Assembly: GCA_035283165.1 (NCBI GenBank) | Contig: DATEUK010000007.1 | Span: forward strand, 1 to 58,296 | From: Thermoplasmata archaeon | GTDB lineage: Archaea > Thermoplasmatota > Thermoplasmata > RBG-16-68-12 > EA-27 | Direction: 5' to 3' | DNA: 58,296 bases | Position numbers and translations under genes: made by a program | Shown: one piece after another, positions 1,813-53,310 of the stretch | How the letters are laid out: each line of letters opens with the position of its first letter | How positions within the stretch are numbered: the stretch's first letter is position 1 | Notes under the pieces: model-generated | Told to the model about the DNA's origin: nothing | The model's database searches: none | The model's input: only the letters and a program-made list of their open reading frames with translations

Positions 1813-1834
1813 CCATCCCACGGTTGCGGCACCG

Positions 1835-3109: not shown

Positions 3110-3110
3110 A

Positions 3111-3827: not shown

Positions 3828-3850
3828 GACCCTCGATGGGCGGTCCCGCG

Positions 3851-4600: not shown

Positions 4601-4684
4601 GCGAGTAAATCGCTTCCCGCCTTAAGGCCCACGGTGGGCGGCCCACGCGAAGGCCTTTTCACGGGGGGTGGCGTTGCCCTCCTC

Positions 4685-6055: not shown

Positions 6056-6694
6056 ATCTGCTTCCGAGGACACGGATTATCCCTCCCCACAGCTCGTCCG
6101 CGTCCACCGCGTCCAAGACAGATCTGAGGCGCTCTATCCATCGGTTCGCCTCAGGCCGTTCGTCCGCACGATCGCGAGAGGACAGCCTCGTCGCCATGAG
6201 TCACCCTGCGTGCCGAGATCGAACGATCCTAACTGGGTCGAAATGGACGCAACCTCGACGAGGGGTCCTTCCTGGACAACGATCATGCCGAATTCGCAGG
6301 CCGGGCAGACCGCACGGTCCGAATGTGACGCAGGACGGCGGATCCGGTTCGCCGCAAGCTTGAAATAACCTGGGGAATCCGTCCCAATCTTCCCTTGTAC
6401 CTCCAAGCTTCTCCTCGCCCGAGGCGATTACGTGTCAGACCTCAATGGAATAGGGTGGATCGCATTCGGACGTGGGAGGGCCCCAGGTGCGATCGGATCG
6501 GCCGGGGCGCTCCTCCGGCCGCTGCGCACGGTCCCTGTTGGCTGCGGGGTTCCGACGCACGCCGATGATGTCCAGGTTGCCATCGATCCCGTCCGGGGCG
6601 CCATTCCCGTGTGGAAGCAGTCAGACGCGACGACCGTCCGTGTCAGCGCTAACGTACTATACTCCAGGAACCTCTACCTCCCCCGGGGTGCCCT

Positions 6695-9600: not shown

Positions 9601-10213
9601 GACGGACGACGGCGGCCTCGAGGGGAACGCGACAGCTTCCGTAGCGGTGTCCCGGGCTCCCGGATTGGACGACGGGACGGTCATCGGAATCATCGGGATC
9701 ATCATCGGGGCGATCATCGTGGCCCTCTGGCGGCTGCGCGTCCTATGGTTCCCGTACTTCATCCTCTGGTGTTACACGAAGCTCCGGAAGGACGAGGTGC
9801 TCGACAATTTCCTGCGTGGCCGGATCTACGAATACGTCCGCCTCAACCCCGGCGACGCGTACACGGAAATCAAGCGGAACCTCGACCTGTCCAACGGTCC
9901 GCTTCTCTATCATTTGGCGGTGCTGGAGCGGGAAGAGCTCGTGCGCTCCATCCAGCAGGGCTCCCGGAAGCGGTTCTATCCGAACGACGTGGCGGTACCG
10001 GAAGACGGGGGCCTCCACGCGCTTCAGGCTCGCATCCTCGAGGCCCTTCGCGGGGAGCCCGGAGTCGCCGTGACGGAGTTGGCGATGGCTCTTGGTGTCA
10101 GCCGCCACGTGGCGCTGTATCACATCCGCAAACTCGTCCGCTCGGACCTCGTCCGCCTCGAACGTCGGATGGCGCGACTGCGGGCGTACCCAGTCCGCCC
10201 GTCGTCTCGATGA
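6695..10213 (+). CDS. Membrane-anchored surface protein: signal peptide, parallel beta-helix repeats, ~5 PKD/Ig-like domains, TM span(s), and a cytoplasmic double winged-helix (wHTH) tail
   Basis: MRRVGPTAVVGLLVLGGLLGVLTLSSRVATA is the signal peptide. Beta-helix repeats include ITDNVI, ITANNF, VSNTVG, ISGNIIYDG and VTDNHI. PKD signatures are PPTADAGPDQ plus WDFGDG three times. The TM span is GTVIGIIGIIIGAIIVALW (9674-9733). The tail (9776-10210) has two wHTH modules. Confidence 0.85.
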   Translation: MRRVGPTAVVGLLVLGGLLGVLTLSSRVATANTLYVGGGGPGNYTSIQAAVNAAFPGDTVFVYSGNYTENVTVTKTLNLVGEGMETTFLHGAGAYYTLNVGADWVNVTGLSVVGGVAYETVFGIGMSGHHNRIFRNNASIRFDATLWAYTTITDNVIHRISRESSAFVHPGLQVRSSSFVTIDANTFPDSGIDLWDSTDVTITANNFTSVADVSAGVGFGPLSQWVHGSLANHNSHTITPDNLVNGKPLYYHKNCSGLTVDGVPLGQLIVVNCTAVQISHLQLANPAPPIYVAYSNGVNISTSNVASYILSLQSSDLSIVSNTVGFISLWYTTNARLIANYIDFGTDVAISSSVVISGNIIYDGSVRLHWCNDIQVTDNHITSSDFAAIEVGGPGPWGYRTCSNVVILRNTLESNYVIYYIISVTLGSSILTVHHNNIGTTQGGGYGTVSDEGSGTTWDDGYPSGGNHWWDYTGVDLLSGPNQDLPGTDGIGDTPYVIDSDSIDRYPLMSPMVPGTMPVLSATGEPNYGTDGVDPETGTLGATFTYRVSYLDADNDFPLAGDPKVHIRKGSVEIAGSPFTMTAVDPLDADVTDGKLYTYTTTLTSRGTDYTYEFTASDAVGLAAADWPAPPADAPDVLNRPPTADAGPDQNVPKGTLVTLDGALSRDPDNDPLSYTWAAPPGIALSSANVPMPTFTATRTGTFPFTLTVDDGDPANGTDTDTVVITVWGLPPVANLTADRMRANVGGAFLFSGAGSTDADGSIAAYLFEFADGTDQTGGSDTAMHAYAAPGSYVVRLTVWDDDGNASAADTLTVTVNAPPVASGTVTPASGTLATTFTFTSTSTDSDGTIVTTSWDFGDGATDSGTPVTHAYATRQTFTVTLTVWDDDGATATSTLSVSVGNLPPTAAFAVTPASGDVATEFTFDGSASTDDGTIVAYAWDFGDGTTGSGVVVTHRYSRNGSFAVTLTVTDDGGLEGNATASVAVSRAPGLDDGTVIGIIGIIIGAIIVALWRLRVLWFPYFILWCYTKLRKDEVLDNFLRGRIYEYVRLNPGDAYTEIKRNLDLSNGPLLYHLAVLEREELVRSIQQGSRKRFYPNDVAVPEDGGLHALQARILEALRGEPGVAVTELAMALGVSRHVALYHIRKLVRSDLVRLERRMARLRAYPVRPSSR

Positions 10214-13614: not shown

Positions 13615-16600
13615 TCACGCAGCGTAGTACGCCTCGTCGTACGGCTCGGGCGCGAGTCCCTTGCGCTCCCGGATTCCCCGGACGACGTCTCCCTGGAGGT
13701 CCGACGGAACCGGCTGGAAACCGGCGTTCTCCGTGGACCAGAGGACGCGGCCCTGCGTCGCGCCGCGGATGGCGGTCGCGAACCCGAACATCGCCGCCAC
13801 AGGGACCTTCGCGGAGATCTTCGTGACCTCGCCCTCCTGCTGAATGTCCTCGATGGTGCCGCGCCGACTCTGCACGTCGCCGATCGCGGCGCCCATCACG
13901 TCCTGCGGAAGGTCGAGGAACAGCTTCTGTTTCGGTTCCATGAGGATCCGCTCGCCCTGGACCATCGCCCCATAGATCGCGCTCCGAACGGCCGGAATCA
14001 CTTGCGCAGGGCCGCGGTGCACGCTGTCCTCGTGCAGTTTCGCGTCGACGAGGCGGATCTTCATCGCCATGCACTTCTCCTGTGCGAGCGGGCCCTTCGT
14101 CATCGCCTCCGTGTAGGCTTCCTTCACGAGCTCCATCGTCTCGTTCAGGTACTGGATCCCCTTCGTCGCGTCGATCAGCATGTTCGTGTCCTTGATCCAC
14201 ACGACGTTCTTAGCCTCGTCCTTGTCCATCCCGAGATCCTGCAGCTGTCTCGCGAGCGCCTTCGCGTCCTTGATGCGCTGGCCGCTGGGGATCGCCCCCT
14301 CGTGGATCGCCGCCACGATCGCGTCGGCGAGCGGTTCCGCCTCGACGTAGAAGCGATTGTGTCTGTTCGGGGACTTCCCCTCGAACGGGCCGCCCGCCCC
14401 GCGGACGCGCTCCCGGTACACGACGATCGGCGCGCTCGCGGTGATGGGGACCTTGTAGTCGTTCACGATCCGGTACTGCGTGATCTCCAGGTGGAGCTCG
14501 CCCATCCCCGACATAAGGTGCTCGCCCGTCTCCTGGTTGATGTCCACCTCGATGCTCGGGTCCGCCTTCGCGATCTTCCGGAGCACCTCGACGAGCTTGG
14601 GCAGATCCGCGGTGGCCTTCGCCTCGATCGCGACGGTGACGACCGGCTCCGAGTAGTGCACGATGGGCTCGAACGCCTGCATCGACCGATCGTCGCTGAC
14701 CGTGGACCCCGCGATCGCGTCCTTCAGGCCGATGACGGCGACCACGTTCCCCGCGTCGATCTCTTCGACCGGGACCCTCTCCGGCCCCACGATCATCGCG
14801 ACGGTCTGAACGCGCTGTGGATGCGGCATCCCGGACACCCAGAGCTCTTGGCCGCGTCGGATCCTCCCGCTGAACAGGCGGCCCGCGGCGACCTCCCCCG
14901 CCTGGGGGTCGACGATGATCTTCGTCACCATGTAGGCGACGGGGGCATCCTCCTTCACCTTCGTCATCGCCTTCCCGACGGGGCTCTCGGGGTCTCCCTT
15001 CCAGATCACGGGGATCCGCATCGGCTGGGCGACGAGCGGGTTCGGCAGGTGGTGGATGACCATGTCGAGGACGACCTGGTGGAGCGGCGCCCGCTTGCTG
15101 AGGTCGTCCTGCTTCTCCTCCGACAGGTAGCGGTAGATCTCCTTGAACGTGATCCCCGTCTTCTTCATGTACGGCACGGAGATCGCCCACTTGTTCCGCG
15201 CGCTGCCGAACGCGACGTTCCCTGCCTCGACGTTCAGCGCCCACGGTCCCTTCAGCTCGTCGGGGAGGATCTTCCTGATGCGGACGTTGACGTCCGTGAT
15301 GATCTTCACGAACCGCTGCTGCATGCGGTCCGCGTCCAGCTTCAGCTCGTTGATGAGGCGGTCCACCTTGTTGATGAATAAGACGGGCTTCACGCGCTCC
15401 TTCAGCGCCTGCCGGATGACGGTCTCCGTCTGCGGCATGACGCCCTCGACCGCGTCCACGAGGATGATCACGCCGTCGATCGCACGCATCGCGCGGGTGA
15501 CGTCACCGCCGAAGTCCACGTGGCCGGGCGTGTCGATCAGGTTGACGAGGTACGCCTTCCCGTCGAACTGATGGACCATCGAGGCGATCGCAGCATTGAT
15601 CGTGATGCCTCGCGCCTGCTCCTGCTCGTCGAAGTCCATGAACAGCTGCGTGCCGGCCAGTTCCTCGCTCATCATCCCTGCGCCGGCGATTAGCGAATCG
15701 GATAGCGTCGTGTTGTGAACAAAGAAGCCCTCAGCCACGAAATTTCGCGGGCCAGGAACAGAGAAGTCGTAGACCCATTCTTCCTCGACTCGATGAACGC
15801 TGTGAACTTCGACGAAAGCGACATCTTGATTGAGGACTGGCTCGAGTTCCTCGAAATCGCTCCCGGCCATGAGGATTAGGGATGCTGAGGATGGCTTCTG
15901 TTCCAGACGTGCGTAGGTTCTCGTCTTCCACGTGTTCGTTTGCAGTCTGTTCCAGTTGACGGGGACGAGATCCACCACATAGGAGGGACCGGCTCGTGCT
16001 TCCAGGCCCGCCTGTCGGCTCGATTTCTCAGAATCGTGCAGCCGCGGGAATCGAGAGAGGTTGGTTCGGCCGGAGACGTACAATGTGGAGTGCGACACGC
16101 CTTGATCGAGGATAGCTCGCACCCCCAAGCGCAGGAGCAGGAGCTGGAGGTCGCCTAGGAAGGTGGGGGACGCACTAGTCGCGGTCACCGCGCGCCGGCC
16201 TGATTCGACAGAGCCGTCTGCGTCGAAGTATCCCTGAACAAAGGCCCTGACCGTTGATATCGGGGCCGTGAATAGGAGATCGGGTAGCCGCATCGTTCGC
16301 GCCTTCGCGAGAAGAGGGTAGCCGAGGACGACATGAAGAAACATCAAGAGAGTCTTCGATCGACTCTCGACGCGCGGGACCCGCGGGGGATGGCGGGCGA
16401 TCGCGGGCTTTGGGACGAATCCCTGAAGCGACGCCAACACCTCGTGAATGAGATCCTCGTCCGCCCCGTGAAGGAATCCATTCCCGTCACCGTCTCCGTA
16501 GAGAAGGCCAAGGTATCGGAAGAATCGCTCCATAGAGGCCCGCTTCGGCAAGTACATCGGGGACGCTGCTTTCTTCGTACCGACCCTGTAGGTCACGCGC

Positions 16601-17268
16601 CAGATCTGGCGGTAGACGGCATCGCGAGAGAATCCTGACTTGGCGGCGGCCTCGAAGAGCGACGCGCCATTGACGATGCCCCCTAGCCCTAGAAAGGTTT
16701 CTCCTTCGGCCGTCAGTTCGAAGTGGAAGCGTGGATCTGCGGCAAGGCGGGACACAACGGTCGCTTCAAGATCCGACCATGGCTCGTCGTCTCGCGACGG
16801 GAGCCGCCTGGGAACCGCCAGCATGTCCCCCTTCCTTAACTGGTTCGCTTCTCGGAACTCCAGCTCATGCCCTTTGGCGGCGACGAACCTATGCTCCCGC
16901 GTCGTGCGGAGTCTTCGCCCATCTCGAGTCTCGATCTCCAAGAGAGGCTCCGTTGCTCGGAGCCGCCACACATGGGTAATCTCCGCAAATTGTGTCTCCC
17001 CCGATGAGATGTTGATGGAGCGAGTCCACAGAGACCCATTTGGGACCTGGCGCACGTCCGCACCTTGGCGGTTGGGGACTGGTTCCAGTGACGAGTAGCG
17101 CGCCCACAGATCTCCGGCCGCGATCCACAAGCCATCGACCCATATTCTCGCATCACCGGAGACACATTTCCCGTGATCGATGTGGGCCGCGGTCCCGATG
17201 TTTCGAATCTGCTCCTTCGTGTGGATAAGGTCCTGCGCCTTCCGGATGTTGTCCTCCTTTCGTCCCAT
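13615..17268 (-). CDS. fusA: Translation elongation factor EF-2 (aEF-2) interrupted by a 485-aa intein
   Basis: The 1217-aa ORF contains 732 aa of extein: AHIDHGK|TTLSDSL, DTPGHVDF, NKVD and the diphthamide region HEDSVHRGPAQ. An AGGAG SD lies 9 nt upstream of the ATG. Confidence 0.97.
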   Translation of the reverse strand: MGRKEDNIRKAQDLIHTKEQIRNIGTAAHIDHGKCVSGDARIWVDGLWIAAGDLWARYSSLEPVPNRQGADVRQVPNGSLWTRSINISSGETQFAEITHVWRLRATEPLLEIETRDGRRLRTTREHRFVAAKGHELEFREANQLRKGDMLAVPRRLPSRDDEPWSDLEATVVSRLAADPRFHFELTAEGETFLGLGGIVNGASLFEAAAKSGFSRDAVYRQIWRVTYRVGTKKAASPMYLPKRASMERFFRYLGLLYGDGDGNGFLHGADEDLIHEVLASLQGFVPKPAIARHPPRVPRVESRSKTLLMFLHVVLGYPLLAKARTMRLPDLLFTAPISTVRAFVQGYFDADGSVESGRRAVTATSASPTFLGDLQLLLLRLGVRAILDQGVSHSTLYVSGRTNLSRFPRLHDSEKSSRQAGLEARAGPSYVVDLVPVNWNRLQTNTWKTRTYARLEQKPSSASLILMAGSDFEELEPVLNQDVAFVEVHSVHRVEEEWVYDFSVPGPRNFVAEGFFVHNTTLSDSLIAGAGMMSEELAGTQLFMDFDEQEQARGITINAAIASMVHQFDGKAYLVNLIDTPGHVDFGGDVTRAMRAIDGVIILVDAVEGVMPQTETVIRQALKERVKPVLFINKVDRLINELKLDADRMQQRFVKIITDVNVRIRKILPDELKGPWALNVEAGNVAFGSARNKWAISVPYMKKTGITFKEIYRYLSEEKQDDLSKRAPLHQVVLDMVIHHLPNPLVAQPMRIPVIWKGDPESPVGKAMTKVKEDAPVAYMVTKIIVDPQAGEVAAGRLFSGRIRRGQELWVSGMPHPQRVQTVAMIVGPERVPVEEIDAGNVVAVIGLKDAIAGSTVSDDRSMQAFEPIVHYSEPVVTVAIEAKATADLPKLVEVLRKIAKADPSIEVDINQETGEHLMSGMGELHLEITQYRIVNDYKVPITASAPIVVYRERVRGAGGPFEGKSPNRHNRFYVEAEPLADAIVAAIHEGAIPSGQRIKDAKALARQLQDLGMDKDEAKNVVWIKDTNMLIDATKGIQYLNETMELVKEAYTEAMTKGPLAQEKCMAMKIRLVDAKLHEDSVHRGPAQVIPAVRSAIYGAMVQGERILMEPKQKLFLDLPQDVMGAAIGDVQSRRGTIEDIQQEGEVTKISAKVPVAAMFGFATAIRGATQGRVLWSTENAGFQPVPSDLQGDVVRGIRERKGLAPEPYDEAYYAA
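15712..17166 (-). mobile_element. Full-size intein with a LAGLIDADG homing-endonuclease domain in the EF-2 P-loop
   Basis: It starts CVSGDARIWVDG and ends GFFVHN, followed by +1 Thr. LAGLIDADG motifs are LGLLYGDGDG and VQGYFDADGSV. Excision restores AHIDHGKTTLSD. G+C is locally lower: ~55% versus ~67% in hand-counted 60-nt samples. Confidence 0.9.
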
Positions 17269-26391: not shown

Positions 26392-28062
26392 GTGGTCCGC
26401 GATCTCGCACGGAAGTATGCGCTCCTCAACGCTGTCCAGCACGATGGAAGGGCGAACGCGAAGGCCGTGTTGGGCCGCCTCCTCGCGGAGGACGCGTCCC
26501 TCCGACCCCGCGCGAAGGACCTAACGAAGCTCGTCGAGGACGTCGTCGCCGCGGTGAACGCCCTCGACCGGGACGCCCAGCGGGCGGAGATCGAGGGGAC
26601 GGCCCCCGAGCTGCTCAAGAGACGGCGGGAGGTGAAGGCGCGCGAGTTGCCCGACCTTTCGAACGTCCGCGGATCCGTCGTGATGCGCTTTGCGCCGTTC
26701 CCCTCAGGCCCCCTCCACATCGGCCACGCCCGCGCGATCTTCCTGAACGACTACTACGTGCGCCGATACGGCGGGAAGCTCATCCTCGCGTACGACGACA
26801 CGATCGGGAGCGAGCAGAAGCCCCTGATGCCGGAAGCGTACGACCTCATCCGCGATGGGATCGGGTGGCTCGGCGTGAGCGTCCACGAGGAGATCTACAA
26901 GAGCGACCGCATGCCCGCGTTCTACCAGACCGGCGACCTGCTCCTCGCGCGCGGCGGCGCGTACGTGTGCGAGTGCCCGCCCGCGGACCTGAGGGCAAAC
27001 CGGGAGAAGGGCGTCGCGTGCGCACACCGGGGCCGCGCGCCCGAGGAGAACCTCGACCTCTGGCGGCGGATGCTCAAGGGCGAGTTCGGGGAGGGGGAGG
27101 CGATCGTCCGGATCCGGACGGACGTGAGGCACCCGAACCCCGCGTTCCGGGACCGCGTCCTCTTCCGGATCAGCGAGCGCGAGCATCCGCGCGTGGGCAG
27201 GAAGTACCGCGTGTGGCCGCTCCTCGAGTTCTCCTGGGCGGTGGACGACCACCTGCTGGGAGTCACGCACGTGCTCCGCGGCAAGGACCTCGTCATGGAG
27301 GACGAGATGGAGAGGGCGATCTGGGACCGCCTGGACGTGCAGCGCCGCCCGGAGTTCATCCACTACGGCTTCCTCTTCTTCAAGGACATGGACCTGAGCA
27401 AGAGCCAGCTCGCGCGGGACATCCGGGAAGGCCGTCTGGCGGGTGTCGACGACCCCCGCACGTGGACGCTCCAGTCCCTTCGCCGCCGCGGGATCTCCCC
27501 GGAGGCGTTGCGGACGTTCATCCTATCCTTCGGGATCTCCCTGACGGACGTCGAGGTCAGCGCGGACAACCTGTACGCGGAGAACCGCAAGGTCATCGAC
27601 GCGTCCGCGAACCGGTACTTCTTCGTCCCCGAGCCGGTGAAGATCACGATCGAGGGGCTGCCGGCCATCGACCAGGTCCAGGCGCCGGTCCACCCGGACT
27701 TTCCGGAGCGCGGCACGAGGGCCCTGGCGGTGTCGCCGATCGTCTACGTCCCGCACGTCGACTACGATGCGTTCACGCGCCAAGAGGTGCGACTCAAGGA
27801 CTTTTGCAATGTAGTCTTGGACGTGCGGTCGGAGTTCACGGGCCGCGAGCTGAAAGACGTCCCGAAGATTCAGTGGGTTGCCGAGCCCCACGGCGTCGCG
27901 ACGCGCGTCGTGATGCCCGACGGCGGGGTGTCGGAAGGCCTCGCGGAGTCGAACCTGCGAAGCGCCAGGGAAGGTGACGTCGTGCAGTTCGAGCGGTTCG
28001 GGTTCGTGCGGGTCGACTCGATCGGTGCGGACGGCATCACGTGCTGCTTCGCACACCGATGA
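26392..28062 (+). CDS. gltX: Glutamyl-tRNA synthetase (archaeal type)
   Basis: FAPFPSGPLHIGHARA, WPLLEFSWAVDDHLLGVTHVLRGKD. The 556-aa length is typical of archaeal GluRS. Confidence 0.93.
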   Translation: MVRDLARKYALLNAVQHDGRANAKAVLGRLLAEDASLRPRAKDLTKLVEDVVAAVNALDRDAQRAEIEGTAPELLKRRREVKARELPDLSNVRGSVVMRFAPFPSGPLHIGHARAIFLNDYYVRRYGGKLILAYDDTIGSEQKPLMPEAYDLIRDGIGWLGVSVHEEIYKSDRMPAFYQTGDLLLARGGAYVCECPPADLRANREKGVACAHRGRAPEENLDLWRRMLKGEFGEGEAIVRIRTDVRHPNPAFRDRVLFRISEREHPRVGRKYRVWPLLEFSWAVDDHLLGVTHVLRGKDLVMEDEMERAIWDRLDVQRRPEFIHYGFLFFKDMDLSKSQLARDIREGRLAGVDDPRTWTLQSLRRRGISPEALRTFILSFGISLTDVEVSADNLYAENRKVIDASANRYFFVPEPVKITIEGLPAIDQVQAPVHPDFPERGTRALAVSPIVYVPHVDYDAFTRQEVRLKDFCNVVLDVRSEFTGRELKDVPKIQWVAEPHGVATRVVMPDGGVSEGLAESNLRSAREGDVVQFERFGFVRVDSIGADGITCCFAHR

Positions 28063-36274: not shown

Positions 36275-38491
36275 CTATCGATGCGAAAGCACGCTGTAGT
36301 ATCGTTCGTCCTTCACCGTCTTCTCGAGCGAGCCGAAGATCGGGAGCTTGTAGTCGCATGACTTGCACCGGTTGTCCTTCGTCAGGTTCCATCCGGTGAT
36401 GTCGAACCCGTACCGGCGGATCGCGATCGTCCCGCACCCCGGGCAATACGTGTGCTCGAGCGGGTGACCGGGCACGTTTCCGATGTACACGTACCGGAGC
36501 CCGACCTCCTTCGCGACCGCGCAGTGCTTCTCGAGCGTCTCGACGGGCGTCCACGGGAACTCCATCATCTTGTAATCCGGGTGGAACCGCAGGAAGTGGA
36601 TCGGCGTGTCCGGTCCCAGCTCGTCGTACACGAACTTGGACAACGTCCGGGCGGCGTCGAGGTTGTCGCCGACCTGGGGCACGATGAGGTCCGTGATCTC
36701 CGTGTGGATCTTCGTCCGGTCCCGGATGTCCTTCAGGGTCTGGAAGATCGGGTCCGCGTTCGGGATCGAGATGTACTTCCGCACGAACTGCGTTTCGCCA
36801 GAACCCTTGAAGTCGACCGTGATGCAGTCGAGGAACGGCTTCATCTGCTCGACGACCTCCGGCGTGTCGTACCCGTTCGAGACGAAGATGTTGATGAGCC
36901 CGGCCTTCCGCGCGAGGACGCCGATGTCCCGCGCGAACTCGATGAAGATCGTCGGCTGGTTGTACGTGTACGCGAGGCCCTGACAGCCTTGGTCGAGGGT
37001 CATGCGGACGATGTCCTCCGGCTGCGCATCGATGCCCTCGATCTTCCGTCGCTGGGAAATGTCGTAGTTCTGGCAGTTCGCAACCGCCAGGAAATTGGCG
37101 GTGTAGCTGTGGTCGTCATCGACCTCGATGTTGTAGACCGGGCCCACGTAAGTCTTCGTCCGAATGTCCCTGATGGGCGCGAAGATGTGGTCCTCCGTGG
37201 CATACCGCTCCATCGCGTGGGAAACGACTTGCGTTTGCAGACCTCCGCTAGAGCCGAGAGCAATCGCCTCCTCCAGCGAACCCCAGTGTGCGATCCATCC
37301 AGGCATGGCCGTTGCTTCGCTCGGAGTCCTGGGCCGGGGAATCACAAGGCAGTCGCCGGCGCTAAGGGATTCTGCCCGAACTTCGGTGACGGCCGCTCCC
37401 TTGATTGACGCGTACACGTTGTGATCGGGGGTGCACTCCAGCGCGCCCATCCCCGCCAGCCGAATTTCCAAGGCAGGGCCCGAGTAGAAGTGCTCGAACG
37501 CCTGGACGATTCGCCGCCATCGCCTCTTGTGGGTGAAGGCCATTCGCCCGTCGGCGCCGCGAACTTCCGGATTCAGGGAGGGCGGCGAAGAAGCGAAGAT
37601 TCGCTCGATTCTTTCCTGGCCCCGATCCGTCAGCACCTTCGTGCCCGGGAGGAAACAATATCGACAGTTGTGCACGACGACATCCGCGGCGACGTAGTTG
37701 TGAAACGGAACGCATTCGAAGCTATAGACCCGTTCTCGGGAACCTTCGGGCGAAACGCGTAGGACGCTCGACCATCCGAAGGTCGGCAAATTGAGTTCTT
37801 GGTACAAGAGATCCAGGAACCTGGAAGTCTCGACCGGGTGAGCGCTCGGACCGTGCGGGGGCAGCAGGATGCGTCCAGCATGCGCGGGTCTTGAAGCGAG
37901 ACCCTCGTGGACTAGGACGCGATCGCCAGCACTGAGCCCTGAAATGGTCTTCCAACCTTCGGCCGTCAACACCGGGTGTTCGGCCGTCCCGAAGAGCGGC
38001 TCGCGAAGACGTTCGATCGAAACGCGGTATACGGGGGCCTTTCGAGCGCCCGCCAGGGTCACGACGTCGGGGATCGCGCGGCCCCGGGTGCCCGTTGACC
38101 AAAGGGCATCACCCGGCGCGATCTCCTCGACAGGCCTCGTTGTCCCGTCCATCATGAGTATTTGTGTCCCCGCGGGATGGCACAGCCAATTGCACCCGGT
38201 CGTCGCAATGCTGAAGATCTTCGACCCCGGCCGGTAGTGCGTCACCGGCTTCTTCTCGATCGGGTCGACGTGACCGGTGATCACCTTCCCGTACGTGTAC
38301 AGCCACAACTTCCCTTGATGGACGCCGCGGATTCCGCAGAGGCCGACCTGCCCCTCGCCGATCTTGCAGTACCGTGCGCACGCGGTGCACACGATCCGGC
38401 CGGACTCCGTGGGCTTCCACAGCTCCGCGACCTTGCCCATCGCGTGGCCCGGCGCCTCGCGGACGTCGAGCGGTTCCCTCTGGGGCAGCAC
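36275..38491 (-). CDS. Radical-SAM enzyme (AmmeMemoRadiSam / PflA-like family) interrupted by two mini-inteins
   Basis: The N-terminal Cys-rich region is [20 protein letters not shown]. The spliced motif is [16 protein letters not shown]. The C-terminal part reads GYDTPEV...[10 protein letters not shown]...CPGCG...CKSCDY. The start is ambiguous: GTG 38491 (23 nt after the TATA box), ATG 38440 or ATG 38560. Confidence 0.88.
37076..37657 (-). mobile_element. Mini-intein 2 (194 aa) inserted before the third Cys of CX3CX2C
   Basis: [13 protein letters not shown]...[11 protein letters not shown] (TxxH)...[21 protein letters not shown], followed by +1 Cys. The penultimate residue is Ala rather than His. 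Confidence 0.85.
37667..38182 (-). mobile_element. Mini-intein 1 (172 aa) inserted before the second Cys of CX3CX2C
   Basis: [13 protein letters not shown]...[10 protein letters not shown] (TxxH)...[21 protein letters not shown], followed by +1 Cys. No endonuclease domain. Confidence 0.88.
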
Positions 38492-38513
38492 GGGTTCACG
38501 AGCCGCTCCGGCG

Positions 38514-38522
38514 CTATAAAGG
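38514..38522. promoter_or_regulatory. TATA element in the divergent region between the radical-SAM gene and the 428-aa gene
   Basis: CTATAAAGG on plus, CCTTTATAG on minus. On the minus side GTG 38491 follows after 23 nt. Confidence 0.35.
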
Positions 38523-38586
38523 AAACGCCCTGACTCTCGCGGACGCACGCGAAGGTTCATTCGAAGCGTGCGGCTTCCGCCGCAGG

Positions 38587-46781: not shown

Positions 46782-47201
46782 ATGTTCCACTGGATCGAGG
46801 CCCGTGCGTTCTGCCATGCCACGGAGGACGAGGAGAAGGTCTTGGCGGCGCTCCACACCGTCCTCCCGGAGGGCGAAGTCCGGCGCGACGCCCTCGAGGG
46901 CCACTTCGGGAACCCTCTGGTCATCCTCGCCGCGCGGACGGAAACGTACCCGGGCACGAAGTCAGCCTGGCGGCGCATCGCAGAGGCCCTCGGCCCTAAG
47001 GAGATCCTCCAGGACGTCGAGGCGCGGATCGACGAGGATCTCGTGTATCATCTCCGCCTGGACAAGCAACGCGCCTGTCTCGGAGCGATTCATCGGGCCG
47101 GAGGCGCGGACGTGATCGATGTCAAAGCGAAGGTGGCGACATTCCCGAGGAAACGCGAGCTTGCGATCCAGGCGCTACGTGAGTCGGTCGGAGGGTCCTG
47201 A
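46782..47201 (+). CDS. UPF0201 / DUF54-like predicted RNA-binding protein
   Basis: MFHWIEARAFCHATEDEEKVLAALHTVLP...GNPLVILAAR...YHLRLDKQRA. It is the typical partner of UPF0200 genes in archaea. Confidence 0.65.
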   Translation: MFHWIEARAFCHATEDEEKVLAALHTVLPEGEVRRDALEGHFGNPLVILAARTETYPGTKSAWRRIAEALGPKEILQDVEARIDEDLVYHLRLDKQRACLGAIHRAGGADVIDVKAKVATFPRKRELAIQALRESVGGS

Positions 47202-48364
47202 TGCACCTGGAGGCGGACGAGGAGCGGATGGCCATCGAGGGCACGCCCGCGGAACGGCTCTCGATGAAGATCCTGAAGACCCTCGGGGACGTCTACGGGG
47301 CGGACCGCCTAATCCCCATCGCGAGCGCCCACGTTTCGGGCGCGTCCCCGCGAACACTCGGTGAGGCCGGAATCGAGTTCCTCGAGGGGTTCGCGACCTC
47401 TGCCAAGGTGCGCGTCCGCACGACCGTGAACCCGACGGGAATGGACCCGGATCGATGGCGCGAACTCGGCGTGCCAGAGGCGGAGATCCGGTCGCAGGAG
47501 CGAATCGTGGCGGCATACTCGAAGATGGGCATCGAGCCCACGTTCTCGTGCACGCCTTACCTGGTGGGGAACCGCCCCAGGTTCGGCGACCACCTCGCGT
47601 GGGCGGAATCCTCCGCCGTCGTGTTCGCGAACGCGGTGCTCGGGGCGCGGTCGAACCGGGAAGGCGGTCCCTCGGCGCTCGCAGCGGCGGTGATCGGTCG
47701 AACGCCGGACTATGGACTTCATCGGGACGAGGACCGGATGGCGACCCACGTCGTGGACGTGGACGTCCCGATGCGGGGGTATCGATGGTCCCTCCTCGGG
47801 CTCCATCTTGGTGCGGTCATCGGCGACGGGGTGCCCTACCTCCGCGGCGTCTCGGCGGCGGACTCGGATCTGAAGTGGTTCGGGGCGGCCCTCGCGGCCT
47901 CGGGCAACATCGGCATGTTCCACGTCGAGGGGACGACGCCCGAATGGCGGCAGGCGAATCCCCGGGGGTTGCCGAAGGTCTCCGTCACCGAGGCGGATCT
48001 GCTCGCGACGAAGGAGAGGCACACGTCGGGTGTCGAGCCAGACGCGATCGGCCTCGGGTCCCCGCAGCTGTCCGCCGACGAGCTACGGCACCTCGCAGAG
48101 CTGATCGAGCGTCACCGCCCGCGGCCGCGGGTGTACGCATTCACGAGCCGCGCCGCGCGGGCAGAGGCCGGCGACGCCGCCAAACGGATCGAGGCTCTCG
48201 GTCACGTCGTGCTCGTCGACACGTGTCTCGAGGTGGCGCCGATGGACCTGTGGGCGAAGACCACCGCCACGCCTTCGGGGAAGGGCGCCGTCTACCTGCC
48301 GACGTTGTGCGGGCAGAAGGTCGTACTCGACGATCTGGAGGAACTCCTCCGGAGGTTCGCATGA
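47201..48364 (+). CDS. Aconitase X catalytic (large) subunit, DUF521; candidate phosphomevalonate dehydratase large subunit
   Basis: MKILKTLGDVYGADRLIPIASAHVSG, FSCTPYL, WAESSAVVFANAVLGARSNREGG and MFHVEGTTPE. Its start overlaps the upstream stop (TGATG). Confidence 0.8.
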   Translation: MHLEADEERMAIEGTPAERLSMKILKTLGDVYGADRLIPIASAHVSGASPRTLGEAGIEFLEGFATSAKVRVRTTVNPTGMDPDRWRELGVPEAEIRSQERIVAAYSKMGIEPTFSCTPYLVGNRPRFGDHLAWAESSAVVFANAVLGARSNREGGPSALAAAVIGRTPDYGLHRDEDRMATHVVDVDVPMRGYRWSLLGLHLGAVIGDGVPYLRGVSAADSDLKWFGAALAASGNIGMFHVEGTTPEWRQANPRGLPKVSVTEADLLATKERHTSGVEPDAIGLGSPQLSADELRHLAELIERHRPRPRVYAFTSRAARAEAGDAAKRIEALGHVVLVDTCLEVAPMDLWAKTTATPSGKGAVYLPTLCGQKVVLDDLEELLRRFA

Positions 48365-49143
48365 GGCTCGTCGGACGAACCGTCGTGGCGGGTCTGGCGG
48401 AGGGCCCCGTCCTCGCCTCGGACCGACCGCTCTCTCTCCTTGGCGGCGTGGACAACGAGACGGGCGAGGTCCGCGACCCGGAGAGCCCGCTGCGTGGAGA
48501 GCGGCTCGGAGGCCGCGTCCTCGTCGTACCGCACGGGAAGGGGAGCACGGTCGGCTCCTACGTTCTGTACGCGCTCCGGAAGCGGAATGCAGCCCCACGC
48601 GCGATCCTCGTCTCCAAGGCGGACACGATCCTTGCGGTCGGTGCCGTCCTTGCGGAGGTCCCGATGGTGGACCGGATTCCCGTGGATGTCTTGCGTACGG
48701 GGGACCGGGTCGTCGTGGATGCGGCCGCCGCCATCGTCGACGCCCCCGACCTCGTGGAACGGGACGTGGTGACGTCCTTCCTGGAGCGGGAGGGTCGCAT
48801 CCTGGTCGTCCGGCGCAGCGAACAGGTCGGCTCCTTCCGGGGGAAGTGGTCCGGCGTCTCCGGGTTCCTCGAGGGCGTGGACGCGGAGGCCCACGCCCGT
48901 CGCGAGATCGAGGAGGAGACGGGGCTCACGGACGTACGACTCCTGGCGGCGGGCCCCGTGGTCCGGAGCCGAGGACCGGACAACACCGTGTACGCGATTC
49001 GACCGCATCGGTTCGCCTCCCGCGCGGGAGGCGTCCGGCTCGATTGGGAAAACGTCGAATACCGCTGGGTGGTGCCGGCGGAGCTCGCGGGCCTGGACGC
49101 GGTGCCGAAGCTCCGGGCCGCGTACGAGGCGACCCTAGGCTGA
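48361..49143 (+). CDS. Fusion of the aconitase X swivel (small) subunit, DUF126, with a C-terminal Nudix hydrolase domain
   Basis: N-terminal half: GLAEGPVLASDRPLSLLGGVDNETGEV...VVPHGKGSTVGSYVLYAL...AAPRAILV. C-terminal half has the Nudix box GFLEGVDAEAHARREIEEETGL. ATGA overlap with the upstream gene. Confidence 0.8.
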   Translation: MRLVGRTVVAGLAEGPVLASDRPLSLLGGVDNETGEVRDPESPLRGERLGGRVLVVPHGKGSTVGSYVLYALRKRNAAPRAILVSKADTILAVGAVLAEVPMVDRIPVDVLRTGDRVVVDAAAAIVDAPDLVERDVVTSFLEREGRILVVRRSEQVGSFRGKWSGVSGFLEGVDAEAHARREIEEETGLTDVRLLAAGPVVRSRGPDNTVYAIRPHRFASRAGGVRLDWENVEYRWVVPAELAGLDAVPKLRAAYEATLG

Positions 49144-52100
49144 CGGGACCGGCACGGTCACGACGCCGTCGACTTCCTTCTCGAGCAGGTTCAACTGATG
49201 CGCGTCGAGCGTCGCGGGGTTCACGGACAGCACCATGGTCGCCCCGTTGATCGCGACCTGGTCCCGCAACGCCTGCACGAGCCGGAGGACGGTCAGGAAG
49301 TTGTTGTTCGTGATGAGGTATTCGATCCCGTCGAGGAGGACGAGCCCCGCCTCTTTCACGATGAACTGCTCGAGCGCGAGGGACAGCTTCTCCAGGTCCT
49401 TCGGCCGCACGCTGTCGTCCTTGCCCACGTTGCTGAGCCACAGGATCGGGACGTCCGCCGGGATCCCAAACTTCTCGCGGACCTTGGCGGGGTACACGCG
49501 GGTGACGCAGAAGCCACGCCGTCCCTTCCGGAGCGCGTCCAGGAAGAGAGCGTACGACTGCTGGGGCTTCTCCTCCTTCACGAGATATGTGGACGACGCG
49601 CCCGGCTCCATCGCGGGTGCGGGGAGCGCCTCCTGGATCGGTGCTTGGACGCGGACCGCGACCGGAGTGGGCGCCATCGTGGGGGCCTCAGCGACGGGTT
49701 CCATGGCCCGTGGGGCCGGGGCGGCGGCGACCGGAACGGCCACGGCCGGCGTTTCGGGCGCAGGCTCCGGCTCGGGCTTCGCCGGCTTCTCCGCGCCGAA
49801 CCCGCAGTGGGGGCAGGCGTACGTCCCCTTGGCGATCGGCTTCCCGCACGCCGGGCACGGCAGGGTCCCCTCGGGGAGCTCCCCGCACCGCCAGCAGCGT
49901 GACTCCTCGGGCCTCCCCGGTGCGCCACACACCGCGCAGGCGGGGACCTTCGCGGCGGGTTCCCGCCCGAGGAATTCCCAGATGCGCCGGGCGTCCCCCT
50001 CCTCGATCCCCTGGATGTGGAGGATCTCGTCGCGGCTCGCGGCGCGGACGGCTGCGAGGGTCTTGTATCCCGCATCGAACAGCGCGATCGCCTTCTTCTC
50101 CGTGATGCCGGGGATCTCCGTGAAGGCGTCCAACGCCTCCCGCATGTGGAGGGGGGTGATCCCGACCAGCAGCGACTCCCCCTCCACATTCGGCCACTCC
50201 ACGATGTACTCCTCGTCGACGTCGCCCGTTCCGATCGTGAGCGTGCGGCTCCGGACTTCCCGCGCGATGTACGACCGCCAGGGCTCCAGGGGGGCGACCA
50301 GCCCTTCGGGGACCCGGATGATGGCCCGGATGTAGTCCTCCACGTCGAGATCGATGTCCTTCCGCATCTGCTGCACGCGCCGCACGACCTCCCGTGCCAT
50401 GCCCTCCGCGCGGAGTTCGGGCGTGATCCGGAGGTCGATGAACAGCTCCCCGTACGGCGTCTCCGCACGCACGATTCCCTCCGGCAGGCGGTGCTCGACC
50501 CGCACCATGTTCGGCAGGATCTTGATGATCTGTCCCTCGATCCCCATCTTGTACTCCCCGTGCTCCTGCAGCTCCCGTTGGACCTCCGAGGCCGGACGCA
50601 TCTCGAGGATCGTCGCGATCTTCGACCACCACGCCTTGTACGCCTTCCCGATTGCCTGCGGGTCCGGCGACAGCGCGAGTTCCATCTCCGCGTACGGGGA
50701 GTCCTCGGCGAGGATCTGCACTTCCTTCACGTTCGCCATGTCCCGGAAGATGTGCAGGAGCTGTCGGATGGCGTCCGCCGCGTCCGCTGGCGCCCCCTGG
50801 ATCGTCACGGACCGCACCGGCCACCGGAGCTTCAGGTTCTCCTTCTGGCGCACCTTCGCCACGACGTCCACGAGATCCCGGATCGTGTTCATCGACCTCT
50901 CGAGGCCCGCGTTCAGGAAGTCCTCTCGGGATCGGGGCCAGTCCGCCATGTGCACGGAGAGCATGCGGCCGTCGAGGTCCTGGTAGATCTCCTCCGCGAT
51001 GTGCGGACAGAACGGGGCGAGGAGCCTGGCGGTCGTGACCAACGCCTCGTACAGCACCCTGTACGCCGCCATCTTGCCCCGGTCCTCGCCCTCCGCCCAC
51101 GTCCGGTCCCGAACGATCTTCACGTACCATCGCGAGAGGTCCTCGACGACGAACTCCTCGAGCGCGCGCGTCGCCCGGTGCAGCTCGTACGCTTCGAGCA
51201 GGGCCGTCATCGTCTCCTTGATCCGCTCCACCCGGGACAGCAGCCACCGGTCCTCCGGCGTGAGGTGTTTCACGACCTCGTCGAGCCGGTGCGCGTCCGG
51301 GTCGAATCGGTCCATCGCCATATACGTCGTCGCGAACCGGAGGACGTTGTACAGGATCGTCAGCGTCCGGCCCGCGTTCTTCACGTCCTCCCAGGAGAAC
51401 GTGACGTCCTCCCACGGCGCGTTCGCCCGCAGCAGGTACAGACGGAGGGCGTCGACCCCGTGTTTGGCGATGACCTCGAACGGTTCGATGTAGTTTCCCA
51501 GGGACTTGTGCATCTGCCTCCCGTCCGGGCCGTTCACCCACCCGTGCATGAGGACGGACTCGAACGGGGATCGGTCGAACGCAGCCACACCCAAGGTGAG
51601 CTGGGCGTTGAACCACCCGCGTGTCTGGTCGGGCCCTTCGACGATCCAGTCGACCGGCCACCACCGCTTGAACAGGTCCTTCGTCCGCGGAAGGTTGAGC
51701 TGCGCCCACGACGCGACCCCGGAGTCGAACCAGACGTCGAGGACGTCGGGCACGCGGCGTTCCGTCCCGCCGCACTTCGGGCACCGGAACGTGACCGCGT
51801 CGATCCACGGCCGGTGCAGGTCCATGCCCTCGCGGTAGTTCTGCCCCGCCCGCAACTCCTCCGTGGAACCGACGACGCGCAGGTCCCCGCACTTCTCGCA
51901 CACCCAAATCGGGAGGGGCGTGCCCCAGTACCGTTGCCGGGAGATTGTCCAGTCACGCAGGTTCGTCGTCCACTCCATCTGCCGGGCGGAACCCGCCCAG
52001 TCCGGGACCCATCGGACTCGCCGGATCTCTTCGATCATCTTCGCCCGTAGGGGGTCCACGCGGAGGAACCACTGCTCCGTGACCCGGAAGATGACCGGCG

Positions 52101-53310
52101 TGTGGCACCGCCAGCAGTGGCCGTACCGGTGGACGACCTGCCCCTGGTGGAACAGGGCTCCGGCCGCCTTCAGGTCCTCGATGACCGATGCGCTCGCCTC
52201 CCGCACGTGGCGGCCCGCGTACGAACCCGCCTCCGCGGTGTACACGCCCCGCTCATCGACGGGGGAGAACGGGGGGAGTCCCTGGGCCTGTCCGAGCTCG
52301 AAGTCCTCGGGCCCGTGTCCCGGCGCCGTGTGCACGAGGCCCGTATGCTCGTTCGTCACGGTGGGCGAGGCGAGGACCTTGTGCGCGTTCGGTGCAATGG
52401 CCTGAGCATGGTACGGCACCTTGTCGGCGAGCGGGTGCTCGTAGGCCCATCCCACCATCTCCGATCCCACGAGGAGGTCCCCGATTCGACCCAGCACGTC
52501 CGCCTCGTCCAAGATGCGCGCGGCGGTCTCCTCCAGGACCCACACCGCCCCGTCGCCTAGCTCCACCTTCGCGTACTTGAACTCGGGGTGCACCGCCACG
52601 GCGAGGTTCGCGGGGAGTGTCCACGGGGTCGTCGTCCAGATCAGGAGGGACTCTCCCGGGCGGTCCTTCAAGGGGAACTTCACGTAGATCGAGGGGTCCG
52701 TCTCGTCGGAGTACTCGACCTCCGCCTCCGCGAGCGCGGTCTCGCACCGCGTACACCACTGGAGGGAGCGGACGTTCTTCGACAGGAGGCCTTTCTCGTG
52801 AGCGAGCTTGAGGGTCCACCATTCCGTCTCGATGAACGGGTTCACGATTGTAATGTACGGGGCCTCCCAGTCCATCCACACGCCGAGCTGCTGGAACTGC
52901 TCCGTCATCTTCCCGAGGAGGTCGAGCGAGAACTCGCGGCACGTGGTGACGAACTTCTCGATTCCGAGCTCCTCGATCTCGCGCTTGTTCGTGATCCCGA
53001 GGGTCTTCTCGACCTGCACCTCGATCGGCAGGCCGTGCATGTCATACCCGGGTTGATCGCGGACGTTGTACCCCTGCATCCGCCGCCAACGGACGATCGC
53101 GTCCTTGATCGTCTTGTTCAGGGTCGCACCCAGGTGGATCGATCCCGTCGTGTACGGGGGCCCGTCCACGAAGTAGAAATCCCTCCCCTTCTCGCGGAGC
53201 GTCCGCGTCTTCTCGTACGCCTTCGTCCTCCGCCAGAACTCCTGGACCCGCTTTTCCTGCTCGAGCGGAGCGTGGTCCTTCCTCGCCTGCTTTATCATCG
53301 CACTCCCCAC
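49135..53310 (-). CDS. ileS: Isoleucyl-tRNA synthetase fused in frame to a ~335-aa HhH / double Zn-ribbon / Pro-Ala linker / DUF835 extension
   Basis: PYTTGSIHLGA (HIGH), QMHKSLGN (KMSKS) and a complete IleRS up to about residue 1053. The frame then continues without a stop to residue 1391. Confidence 0.93.
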   Translation of the reverse strand: MGSAMIKQARKDHAPLEQEKRVQEFWRRTKAYEKTRTLREKGRDFYFVDGPPYTTGSIHLGATLNKTIKDAIVRWRRMQGYNVRDQPGYDMHGLPIEVQVEKTLGITNKREIEELGIEKFVTTCREFSLDLLGKMTEQFQQLGVWMDWEAPYITIVNPFIETEWWTLKLAHEKGLLSKNVRSLQWCTRCETALAEAEVEYSDETDPSIYVKFPLKDRPGESLLIWTTTPWTLPANLAVAVHPEFKYAKVELGDGAVWVLEETAARILDEADVLGRIGDLLVGSEMVGWAYEHPLADKVPYHAQAIAPNAHKVLASPTVTNEHTGLVHTAPGHGPEDFELGQAQGLPPFSPVDERGVYTAEAGSYAGRHVREASASVIEDLKAAGALFHQGQVVHRYGHCWRCHTPVIFRVTEQWFLRVDPLRAKMIEEIRRVRWVPDWAGSARQMEWTTNLRDWTISRQRYWGTPLPIWVCEKCGDLRVVGSTEELRAGQNYREGMDLHRPWIDAVTFRCPKCGGTERRVPDVLDVWFDSGVASWAQLNLPRTKDLFKRWWPVDWIVEGPDQTRGWFNAQLTLGVAAFDRSPFESVLMHGWVNGPDGRQMHKSLGNYIEPFEVIAKHGVDALRLYLLRANAPWEDVTFSWEDVKNAGRTLTILYNVLRFATTYMAMDRFDPDAHRLDEVVKHLTPEDRWLLSRVERIKETMTALLEAYELHRATRALEEFVVEDLSRWYVKIVRDRTWAEGEDRGKMAAYRVLYEALVTTARLLAPFCPHIAEEIYQDLDGRMLSVHMADWPRSREDFLNAGLERSMNTIRDLVDVVAKVRQKENLKLRWPVRSVTIQGAPADAADAIRQLLHIFRDMANVKEVQILAEDSPYAEMELALSPDPQAIGKAYKAWWSKIATILEMRPASEVQRELQEHGEYKMGIEGQIIKILPNMVRVEHRLPEGIVRAETPYGELFIDLRITPELRAEGMAREVVRRVQQMRKDIDLDVEDYIRAIIRVPEGLVAPLEPWRSYIAREVRSRTLTIGTGDVDEEYIVEWPNVEGESLLVGITPLHMREALDAFTEIPGITEKKAIALFDAGYKTLAAVRAASRDEILHIQGIEEGDARRIWEFLGREPAAKVPACAVCGAPGRPEESRCWRCGELPEGTLPCPACGKPIAKGTYACPHCGFGAEKPAKPEPEPAPETPAVAVPVAAAPAPRAMEPVAEAPTMAPTPVAVRVQAPIQEALPAPAMEPGASSTYLVKEEKPQQSYALFLDALRKGRRGFCVTRVYPAKVREKFGIPADVPILWLSNVGKDDSVRPKDLEKLSLALEQFIVKEAGLVLLDGIEYLITNNNFLTVLRLVQALRDQVAINGATMVLSVNPATLDAHQLNLLEKEVDGVVTVPVPSA

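Follow-up and report, generated by a model that had tools for sequence, protein, structure and literature searches.

An isoleucyl-tRNA synthetase fused to a KaiC-like DUF835 domain in Thermoplasmata and related archaea: a candidate docking or signalling module

Appended domains are well known in eukaryotic aminoacyl-tRNA synthetases (aaRSs), in which they build complexes and give the enzymes signalling functions. A related case is GCN2, the eukaryotic eIF2alpha kinase, whose HisRS-like domain senses uncharged tRNA. To our knowledge, prokaryotic aaRSs with appended domains are few, and the additions mostly bind tRNA. Here, we describe an archaeal example found on a stretch of 58,296 nucleotides (hereafter, the window) from a Thermoplasmata archaeon (GenBank assembly GCA_035283165.1, contig DATEUK010000007.1), in which ileS, the gene for isoleucyl-tRNA synthetase (IleRS), runs on in frame into a tail made up of a double helix-hairpin-helix domain (HhH2), zinc ribbons, a linker and a DUF835 domain. 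Response regulators with the arrangement REC-DUF835 are listed as 'iKaiC' in a census of archaeal two-component systems (PMC5847659), which is the only paper in the searchable literature that mentions DUF835. Here an essential synthetase carries a domain that in other archaeal proteins serves sensors and response regulators as their output, and it does so clade-wide, the Methanomassiliicoccales (by NCBI naming) included.

The fused ileS gene and its spread among archaea

In the window, the fused gene is a single minus-strand open reading frame (ORF) of 1391 codons, the translation of which is uninterrupted from a GTG at 53310 to the stop codon at 49135-49137. An exact-sequence look-up identified the corresponding NCBI product as HKZ62883.1 ('MAG TPA: isoleucine--tRNA ligase [Thermoplasmata archaeon]'), which begins at an ATG at 53298, 4 codons past the GTG, and comprises 1387 aa. 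The start codon is ambiguous between the two; the ATG, which is also used across the 90% cluster of the window protein, is the likely one. Residue numbers below count from the GTG.

A homologue search was made with the full protein, and the best 120 matches, as 90%-identity clusters, were taken. All 120 have the same architecture, and 116 of them are full-length (at least 1300 aa), with the same domain order and with identities running from 100% down to 49%. The fusion occurs in ~30 clusters at 50% identity, and the window protein's own cluster (at least 90% identity) holds ten other 1387-aa sequences from independent assemblies or contigs. One genome per GTDB species was also scanned with the two most conserved tail peptides, giving 187 relatives, from which 80 loci were retained. 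In 56 of these loci, an uninterrupted ORF of 1345-1672 codons encodes a complete IleRS together with the tail, while 16 end at a contig edge and 8 are interrupted by frame changes. By record title, all but one of the 80 come from Thermoplasmata, Thermoplasmatota, Methanomassiliicoccales/-coccaceae/-coccus or unclassified 'Methanobacteriota/Euryarchaeota' metagenome-assembled genomes (MAGs), the single exception (L022) being titled a bacterial MAG. The complete chromosomes CP070748.1, CP070767.1 and OY970070.1 are examples of Thermoplasmata sequences with the fusion.

The terminal domain is as well conserved as the enzyme that precedes it. In an alignment of 117 full-length sequences, identity to the window protein averages 0.67 in the catalytic and editing core, 0.60 in the anticodon-binding domain, 0.51 in DUF5915, 0.54 in HhH2, 0.42 in the zinc ribbons and 0.17 in the linker, and it rises to 0.68 in DUF835, so that conservation of the last domain equals that of the active site. 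Between pairs of homologues, identity in the IleRS body correlates with identity in DUF835 (Pearson 0.76; none of 500 Mantel permutations reaches this value), which agrees with a single old fusion whose parts were then inherited vertically together. The peptide that spans the junction, GITPLHM.EAL..FT.IPGIT..KA.ALFDAGY, is kept in the 116 full-length homologues and is among their best conserved stretches.

Since the contig belongs to a MAG assembly, and since its GC content is ~68%, at which long spurious ORFs are common, we considered a lost stop codon, a frameshift or a chimeric join as the origin of the long frame. Eight relatives do show genes split by a frame change (L001, L003, L031, L052, L069, L073, L083 and L087). 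Such an artefact would, however, have to be repeated in frame in all 116 full-length clusters and all 56 intact loci, which stem from independent projects, as well as in the ten further contigs of the 1387-aa product, and it would have to produce one of the best conserved peptides of the protein; moreover, the apparent stand-alone tail genes are fragments at the ileS locus. We regard it as next to impossible. Judged by sequence comparison, the IleRS-tail gene is a genuine and anciently fixed fusion under strong purifying selection, and the tail is the rule in the IleRS of a large Thermoplasmata/Methanomassiliicoccales clade.

Four short HhH-DUF835 genes (P0092, P0022, P0102 and P0084; 236-434 aa) were candidates for a stand-alone source or partner of the tail. 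They were rejected, as all four lie at the ileS locus itself (gene order rpe - fen1 - ileS, with nudix/acnX convergent) and represent C-terminal fragments of intact (L081) or of frame-shifted or split (L083, L086, L087) frames.

The split genes listed above could be either assembly errors or genuine pairs of an IleRS and a free DUF835 protein. In L087, the two parts occupy 2507-6061 and 6001-6711, with the break in the linker region just upstream of DUF835.

Some of the more distant members of the family are much longer. IleRS-tail proteins of 1644-2329 aa (P0245, P0246, P0247, P0249, P0251 and P0254) are present in 'Candidatus Thermoplasmatota' MAGs; in their tails the HhH2 and zinc-ribbon units are duplicated, TPR-like helices occur, and acidic linkers of low complexity extend over hundreds of residues, with DUF835 last; the giant tails inspected held no additional informative domains beyond these. 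What stays constant across the tailed IleRSs, giants included, is the IleRS body, HhH2 directly after it, and DUF835 at the extreme C-terminus.

An earlier note on this DNA, made from the letters alone, had treated the fusion as a rarity, an impression that does not survive the counts given above. It had also proposed looking for related IleRSs of more than 1300 aa, which 116 of the best 120 clusters provide, and for a separate gene encoding the tail, for which every candidate proved to be a fragment. It had further allowed that the tail might already be common and annotated in relatives: common it is, and DUF835 already appears among the precomputed Pfam domains, but public records (NCBI or JGI) name the protein plainly 'isoleucine--tRNA ligase'. 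No paper describing an IleRS-DUF835 fusion was found in the searchable literature, a search that did not extend to the 2017 archaeal KaiC-hub paper, and a term search of the aaRS review PMC7373986 gave nothing relevant to the fusion. As far as that literature goes, the joining of an aaRS to an iKaiC signalling-type domain appears to be undescribed; the sequences are abundant in public databases.

Domains of the synthetase and of its tail

The part ahead of the tail is a complete type-2 archaeal IleRS that is predicted to be equipped for both catalysis and editing. The protein scores 934 bits against the NCBIfam ileS model TIGR00392 (cut-off 621), and tRNA-synt_1, Anticodon_1, DUF5915, HHH_5 and DUF835 all exceed their Pfam gathering scores. 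The HIGH motif reads HLGA in the window and HLGQ, HLGT or HLGA in the tailed family. Of the two editing motifs, both present in the window, TTTPWT is found in 116, and GHGPED in 111, of the 117 tailed sequences. An AlphaFold2 (AF2) model of residues 687-1125 (mean predicted local distance difference test, pLDDT, 88.5; predicted template modelling score, pTM, 0.77) gave as its best Foldseek matches IleRS2 of P. megaterium (8c8v, 'fully-resolved C-terminal tRNA-binding domain') and the yeast IleRS-tRNA-Ile complex (8wnd).

The KMSKS loop deviates. It reads QMHKS in the window (residues 595-599; window 51514-51528, minus strand), and its first lysine is replaced in all 117 aligned tailed sequences (QMHKS in 75, PMSKS in 16, QMHRH in 8, AMSKS and others in the remainder), while the second lysine is retained in most of them, the window included. 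The motif is intact in the solved IleRS structures and in P0417 (1026 aa), the sole tail-less archaeal IleRS compared. Loss of the first lysine may correlate with the tail, in a comparison whose tail-less side is this one sequence, and the deviating loop is probably still functional.

The HhH2 domain follows directly. HHH_5 (PF14520) matches residues 1062-1114 with 37-39 bits (cut-off 27), and the NCBIfam profile of the RadA N-terminus matches the same part at model positions 2-49. In a second AF2 model, made of the 346-residue tail from a 64-sequence alignment (mean pLDDT 83), the HhH2 helices, which form a two-hairpin, five-helix fold, lie at tail residues 9-70 with pLDDT above 94; the hairpins of the window protein read PGIT and QGIE, rather than GhG. 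In the model of residues 687-1125, the last strand of the IleRS C-terminal domain passes into the HhH2 helices through no low-confidence segment, pLDDT remaining above 90 over the junction, and as modelled HhH2 is attached rigidly to that domain, with no flexible linker. On its own, HhH2 matches the RAD51 N-terminal domain at a root-mean-square deviation (rmsd) of 1.4-1.7 Å and 29-34% identity, and also the HhH2 domains of NusA AR and of Hef/XPF/ERCC1 (1.4-2.5 Å overall).

Four CxxC pairs follow in the window tail. They fall just below the cut-offs of Zn_ribbon_3 (25.8 bits; cut-off 27) and DZR (PF12773; 22.4 bits; cut-off 27.3), but many homologues have precomputed DZR or Zn_ribbon matches, and relatives carry between one and three ribbons per tail. 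The linker behind them, of ~65 residues in the window and 5-176 across the family, is rich in alanine (16%), proline (16%) and glutamate (10%), and its pLDDT stays below 57.

HhH domains and zinc ribbons are classic nucleic-acid binders, and the tail might act in cis, HhH2 and the ribbons adding contacts to the anticodon stem or backbone of tRNA-Ile that raise affinity or specificity, with DUF835 as an accessory. The tRNA-binding domains appended to MetRS and other synthetases function in that manner. Consistent with such a role, HhH2 joins the tRNA-binding C-terminal domain without a linker, the HhH2 and zinc-ribbon pair recurs as a unit that is duplicated in the giant forms, and the tail could compensate for the first KMSKS lysine, which is lost in the tailed enzymes and kept in the one tail-less enzyme. 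The net charge of HhH2, however, is -2 in the window (family mean -2.1) and that of the zinc-ribbon segment is approximately neutral, so that a simple electrostatic tRNA clamp is not favoured and a plain nucleic-acid-binding reading is weakened. In addition, the closest structural matches of HhH2 include the protein-binding NusA AR and XPF/ERCC1, and the best conserved part of the tail is not HhH2 or the ribbons but DUF835, which the disordered leash places at a distance from any fixed contact with the tRNA. Overall, this role as the main purpose of the tail seems to us unlikely.

DUF835 itself (PF05763) matches residues 1248-1379 over profile positions 4-135 of 136 (104-107 bits; cut-off 33.1; E 5e-30), and it is modelled with pLDDT above 90. 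The DUF835 profile has no match among PDB sequences even at E = 10, and only a comparison of folds is informative. Among PDB structures, Foldseek aligned the domain with FlaH/ArlH (4yds; E 9e-7), the KaiC-like RecA-superfamily ATPase PH0284 (2dr3) and KaiC CI/CII, which superpose at an rmsd of 3-4 Å over ~170 columns. The connection between the first strand and the first helix (YLVKEEKPQQS) has a loop of ~4 residues, and neither the window domain nor the family consensus contains a Gly-rich loop, GK[ST] or GxxxxGK[ST], from which it follows that there is no Walker A motif. On the basis of the model, the domain is of the RecA/KaiC/FlaH alpha/beta type without a P-loop. The residues that are invariant in the IleRS family (E after beta1, TR.YP.K after beta2, WLSNVGK after beta3, RPKDLEKL, LLDG.EYLITNNNF at or after beta4, and N.P after beta5) cluster at the C-terminal ends of strands 1-5, the site of the nucleotide cleft in KaiC and RecA, which points to a pocket or an interface that has been conserved, and not to an inert domain.

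The likeness of the tail to RadA and Rad51 raises the alternative that it docks on DNA or on RadA/RadB filaments and ties IleRS to the chromosome or to repair. Foldseek aligns Rad51 filament subunits with the whole tail over ~370 columns, HhH2 resembles the RAD51 N-terminal domain as closely as described above (~30% identity), the NCBIfam RadA models match the HhH part, and FEN1 is encoded, together with rpe, upstream of ileS in several relatives. The long alignment arises because the HhH N-domain and the RecA core both match, yet its rmsd of ~20 Å implies that the mutual arrangement of the two domains does not. Furthermore, RadA profiles reach 17-20 bits against cut-offs of 259-361 (TIGR02236, 17.7-20.1 bits against 361, in the HhH part only), the Walker A motif is missing, the fold of DUF835 is closest to FlaH and KaiC-like proteins and not to RadA, and rpe-fen1 is absent upstream of ileS in the window. 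The ArlH/FlaH profile is also matched weakly (16-18 bits; cut-off 215), PF06745 (KaiC ATPase) has no match in the protein at E up to 1, and the tail has none among the anti-phage defence families of PADLOC. By these profile scores, the tail is not a member of the RadA/Rad51 or KaiC ATPases, and we judge a DNA-linked function very improbable.

The anatomy given in the earlier note stands up well. It had read one uninterrupted 1391-codon ileS frame, a complete archaeal IleRS before the tail, and M1056 at nt 50145, and all three are correct by the ORF list, the translation and the profile scores. The peptides that it quoted are all present (EIPGITEKKAIALFDAGYKTL, ILHIQGIEEGDARRIWEFL, CAVCGAPGRPEESRCWRCG, CPACGKPIAKGTYACPHCG, the Pro/Ala/Glu linker and STYLVKEE...LLEKE). 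HHH_5 (37 bits) and DUF835 (104 bits) confirm two of its assignments, the two CxxC..CxxC ribbons are visible as CxxC pairs although it is the relatives whose profiles pass, and its KaiC/RecA-like fold without a P-loop agrees with the tail model and Foldseek. It had also assigned DUF835, as a rule, to the C-terminus of signalling-type proteins, and this is likewise supported, by the sensor-type proteins described below and by PMC5847659.

Derivatives without an active site and the role of the tail

Three protein clusters bear on the question of whether the tail depends on the enzyme to which it is attached. P0264 (1091 aa), P0297 (1069 aa) and P0416 (1078 aa) align to the window protein from residue ~616-642 on, at ~29% identity. 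HIGH, KMSKS, DQTRGWF and both editing motifs are gone from their ~400-residue N-terminal region, which is also short of ~240 N-terminal residues, and tRNA-synt_1 is absent or only faint, while Anticodon_1, DUF5915, HhH2, one zinc ribbon and DUF835 are all retained. Six proteins make up the P0297 cluster, and they stem from at least four independent samples; P0416 is 54% identical to P0297, and a homologue search from P0297 found two further proteins only. The assemblies GCA_024275705.1 and GCA_964455305.1 carry pseudo-IleRS genes of this kind. P0264 is encoded at the place that ileS held ancestrally, and it converges there with the AcnX-swivel/NUDIX gene, an arrangement shared by the window and other relatives. 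From their sequences, the three probably arose from the fused gene as pseudo-enzymes. In that case, selection acts on the tRNA-binding half and the tail without aminoacylation, and the role of the tail would be independent of catalysis.

Elsewhere, DUF835 stands in the place of an output domain. A profile-free scan of 1.84 billion representatives returned 2755 DUF835-type proteins at E up to 1e-3, and among the listed representatives that were new to that scan (P0241-P0380), 28 have an IleRS body. In 80 non-IleRS DUF835 proteins examined with Pfam, DUF835 is usually C-terminal, in company with HisKA_7TM, PAS, GAF, V4R, CBS, TPR, PEGA or a zinc ribbon, and the motifs WLS, P..LE.L and LLDG.EYLIT.N.F are common to these proteins and the IleRS tail. 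As DUF835 occupies the transmitter or output position in such proteins, IleRS falls in the input position of the fusion. The layout of the IleRS module is like that of a dead RadA/KaiC protein, with HhH2, one to three zinc ribbons, a disordered leash and DUF835.

Based on these analogies, we suggest that the tail may serve for docking or signalling, independently of catalysis, and couple IleRS and its occupancy by tRNA-Ile to a DUF835/KaiC-type network, a proposal to which we give about an even chance of being right. In such a scheme, the IleRS with its tRNA-Ile-binding half would be the input, by analogy with the sensor domains that stand ahead of DUF835 in other proteins. The tethered DUF835 would bind whatever partner or ligand the DUF835 outputs of other proteins bind, plausibly a KaiC-like ATPase or another DUF835 protein, and in this way the binding or the charging status of tRNA-Ile could be coupled to a regulatory network.

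Alternatively, DUF835 might only oligomerise, with itself or with other DUF835 proteins, membrane-bound ones included, and so serve to localise IleRS in a multi-synthetase, ribosome-associated or membrane-proximal assembly, without passing on any signal. The RecA, KaiC and FlaH folds are oligomeric in the structures that were matched, and the leash is long, flexible and variable in length, with hundreds of residues in the giant tails. The fold matches of the C-terminal part include UNE-I of vertebrate IARS1 in complex with EPRS (7wrs), at rank 17 for the 687-1125 model. Complexes of archaeal aaRSs with EF-1alpha and ribosomes are on record (PMC2094089 and PMC4005694). A mere tether leaves unexplained, however, why the dead IleRS derivatives should have retained both the tRNA-binding half and the tail, and the conservation of DUF835 is pocket-like, at the strand C-termini, and not spread over surfaces. 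In addition, the GluRS encoded in the same window (26392-28062) is of normal length and lacks such a tail, and no other aaRS family is among the domain families reported for the relatives of the tail. We therefore hold a pure scaffold to be possible, though doubtful.

A bolder version of the signalling proposal would make IleRS-DUF835 the counterpart in function of GCN2 or RelA, with which these archaea sense charging status. A network with KaiC-type ATPases as its 'hub' has reportedly been proposed for archaea. Occupancy by charged or uncharged tRNA-Ile, or by isoleucine, would be relayed through the rigid HhH2 and the zinc ribbons to DUF835, which would plug into that network, and the dead IleRS-like proteins would be dedicated sensors. 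We think this version decidedly unlikely.

Several observations weigh against a docking or signalling module. Neither in the 80 loci nor in the window does a conserved neighbour of ileS encode a KaiC-like protein or a second DUF835 (a KaiC-like gene lies near ileS in one locus only, L083, and there ~7 kb off), and the reachable literature yielded no DUF835 protein with a tested function. The likeness to the sensor-DUF835 proteins is by analogy and is positional, not functional. The relative arrangement of the tail domains rests on AF2 confidence values, and the mildly acidic HhH2 may have tRNA, DNA or protein as its target. Finally, that the fused gene is the genome's only ileS is concluded from there being no tail-less close homologue among the 120 best matches, and we assume that the genomes with a pseudo-IleRS have a separate active IleRS.

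Should the proposed coupling be correct, DUF835 ('iKaiC') would gain a tractable handle in the form of a defined, soluble and essential fusion partner, and there would be a concrete candidate for a link between tRNA charging and regulation in these archaea, the dead-enzyme derivatives with a tail being a natural experiment that points to the same link. Were the tail only a tether, it would still be a clean case of lineage-wide domain accretion in an archaeal aaRS.

Neighbouring genes and comparison with known systems

The coordinates of the fused gene, its domains and the candidate pseudo-enzymes are collected in Table 1.

Table 1. Location of the fused ileS gene and its predicted domains in the window, and of the probable pseudo-IleRS genes in related loci
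Feature	Residues	Position	Strand	Basis
Whole ileS-tail ORF		49135..53310	-	ORF list, translation, NCBI product HKZ62883.1
Catalytic Rossmann domain with CP1 editing insertion	22-630	51421..53247	-	Pfam tRNA-synt_1 426 bits; TIGR00392; motifs; alignment to solved IleRS
Anticodon-binding helical domain	687-833	50812..51252	-	Pfam Anticodon_1 128 bits; AF2 and Foldseek
Type-2/archaeal IleRS C-terminal tRNA-binding domain (DUF5915)	854-1029	50224..50751	-	Pfam DUF5915 81 bits; Foldseek
(HhH)2 domain, RAD51/RadA N-terminal type	1056-1116	49963..50145	-	HHH_5; RadA N-terminus match; AF2; Foldseek
Two CxxC...CxxC zinc ribbons	1125-1171	49798..49938	-	Sequence; sub-cut-off profiles; pLDDT ~80 (AF2 tail model)
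Disordered Pro/Ala/Glu-rich linker	1172-1238	49597..49797	-	pLDDT 39-57; identity, composition
DUF835/inactivated KaiC-like domain	1239-1385	49156..49596	-	Pfam; invariant columns; pLDDT >90; Foldseek
P0264 gene (probable pseudo-IleRS)		L085 6144-9419		Motif and Pfam comparison
P0297 cluster genes (probable pseudo-IleRS)		L084 538-3747; L088 5874-9083; L089 185-3394		
P0416 gene (probable pseudo-IleRS)		L090 170-3406		

In the window, ileS converges with genes for AcnX and AcnX-swivel/NUDIX (47201-49143, plus strand), the second of which overlaps its end by 9 nt. The arrangement is kept as far as the distant relatives L081, L083, L085, L086 and L087.

In one sub-lineage, the C-terminal tRNA-binding domain of IleRS has a paralogue outside any synthetase. 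Directly upstream of ileS in L051 lies a gene (48-2582, plus strand) for a protein of 844 aa that combines a CARDB domain with a DUF5915-like C-terminal domain (38 bits), and similar genes are present in L039, L041, L043, L044, L065, L072 and L075.

Three further genes of the window are of separate interest. Elongation factor 2 (13615-17268, minus strand; 1217 aa) harbours an intein that includes a homing-endonuclease domain of the LAGLIDADG type (matches to Intein_splicing and LAGLIDADG_3 at residues ~84-519). A radical SAM protein of 761 aa (36275-38560, minus strand) has Intein_splicing (two stretches) and Hint_2 matches before its radical SAM core. A 1172-aa protein (6695-10213, plus strand) combines at least four PKD domains with C-terminal winged-helix DNA-binding domains (HVO_0163_N, HTH_20), an unusual pairing of surface-type repeats with a transcription-factor module.

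Among described systems, the sensor and response-regulator DUF835 proteins (iKaiC, PMC5847659) share with the IleRS tail the Pfam family, its motifs and its C-terminal position behind an 'input' module. In the fusion, however, an essential housekeeping enzyme takes the place of the sensor domain, and between it and DUF835 come an adaptor of HhH2 and zinc ribbons and then a long, disordered leash; the IleRS subfamily also adds the invariant NVGK, RPKDLEKL and NNN.

The likeness to GCN2 is one of concept only, in that an aaRS or aaRS-like tRNA-binding body is joined to a signalling module, and dead aaRS-like versions (P0264, P0297, P0416) exist here too. By Pfam, though, the IleRS-tail protein has no kinase domain, its output being a KaiC-like domain without a P-loop; most members are, by prediction, able to catalyse the reaction, and any link with starvation is hypothetical. 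RadA and Rad51 likewise combine an N-terminal (HhH)2 with a RecA-fold core, but the IleRS tail is without Walker A, has zinc ribbons and a long leash in place of the short polymerisation linker, and ends in a domain that is closer to FlaH and KaiC-like proteins.

Synthetases with extensions form the remaining group. UNE-I of vertebrate IARS1 (7wrs) is, like the tail, a non-catalytic C-terminal extension of an IleRS of the type-2 lineage, and it docks into the multi-synthetase complex; its fold is nevertheless unrelated to HhH2, the zinc ribbons or DUF835, and its partner EPRS is eukaryote-specific. The IleRS with an acetyltransferase (ileS_w_GNAT, NF040702) and MetRSs with appended domains also unite a synthetase with an extra domain, but what they add is an acetyltransferase or an OB-fold tRNA-binding domain, as opposed to a signalling-type pseudo-ATPase, and the window protein (449 bits; cut-off 1999) is not a member of NF040702. 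An aaRS with an appended non-catalytic domain is of a known kind; the joining of such an enzyme to an iKaiC signalling-type domain appears, within the searchable literature, to be the new part.

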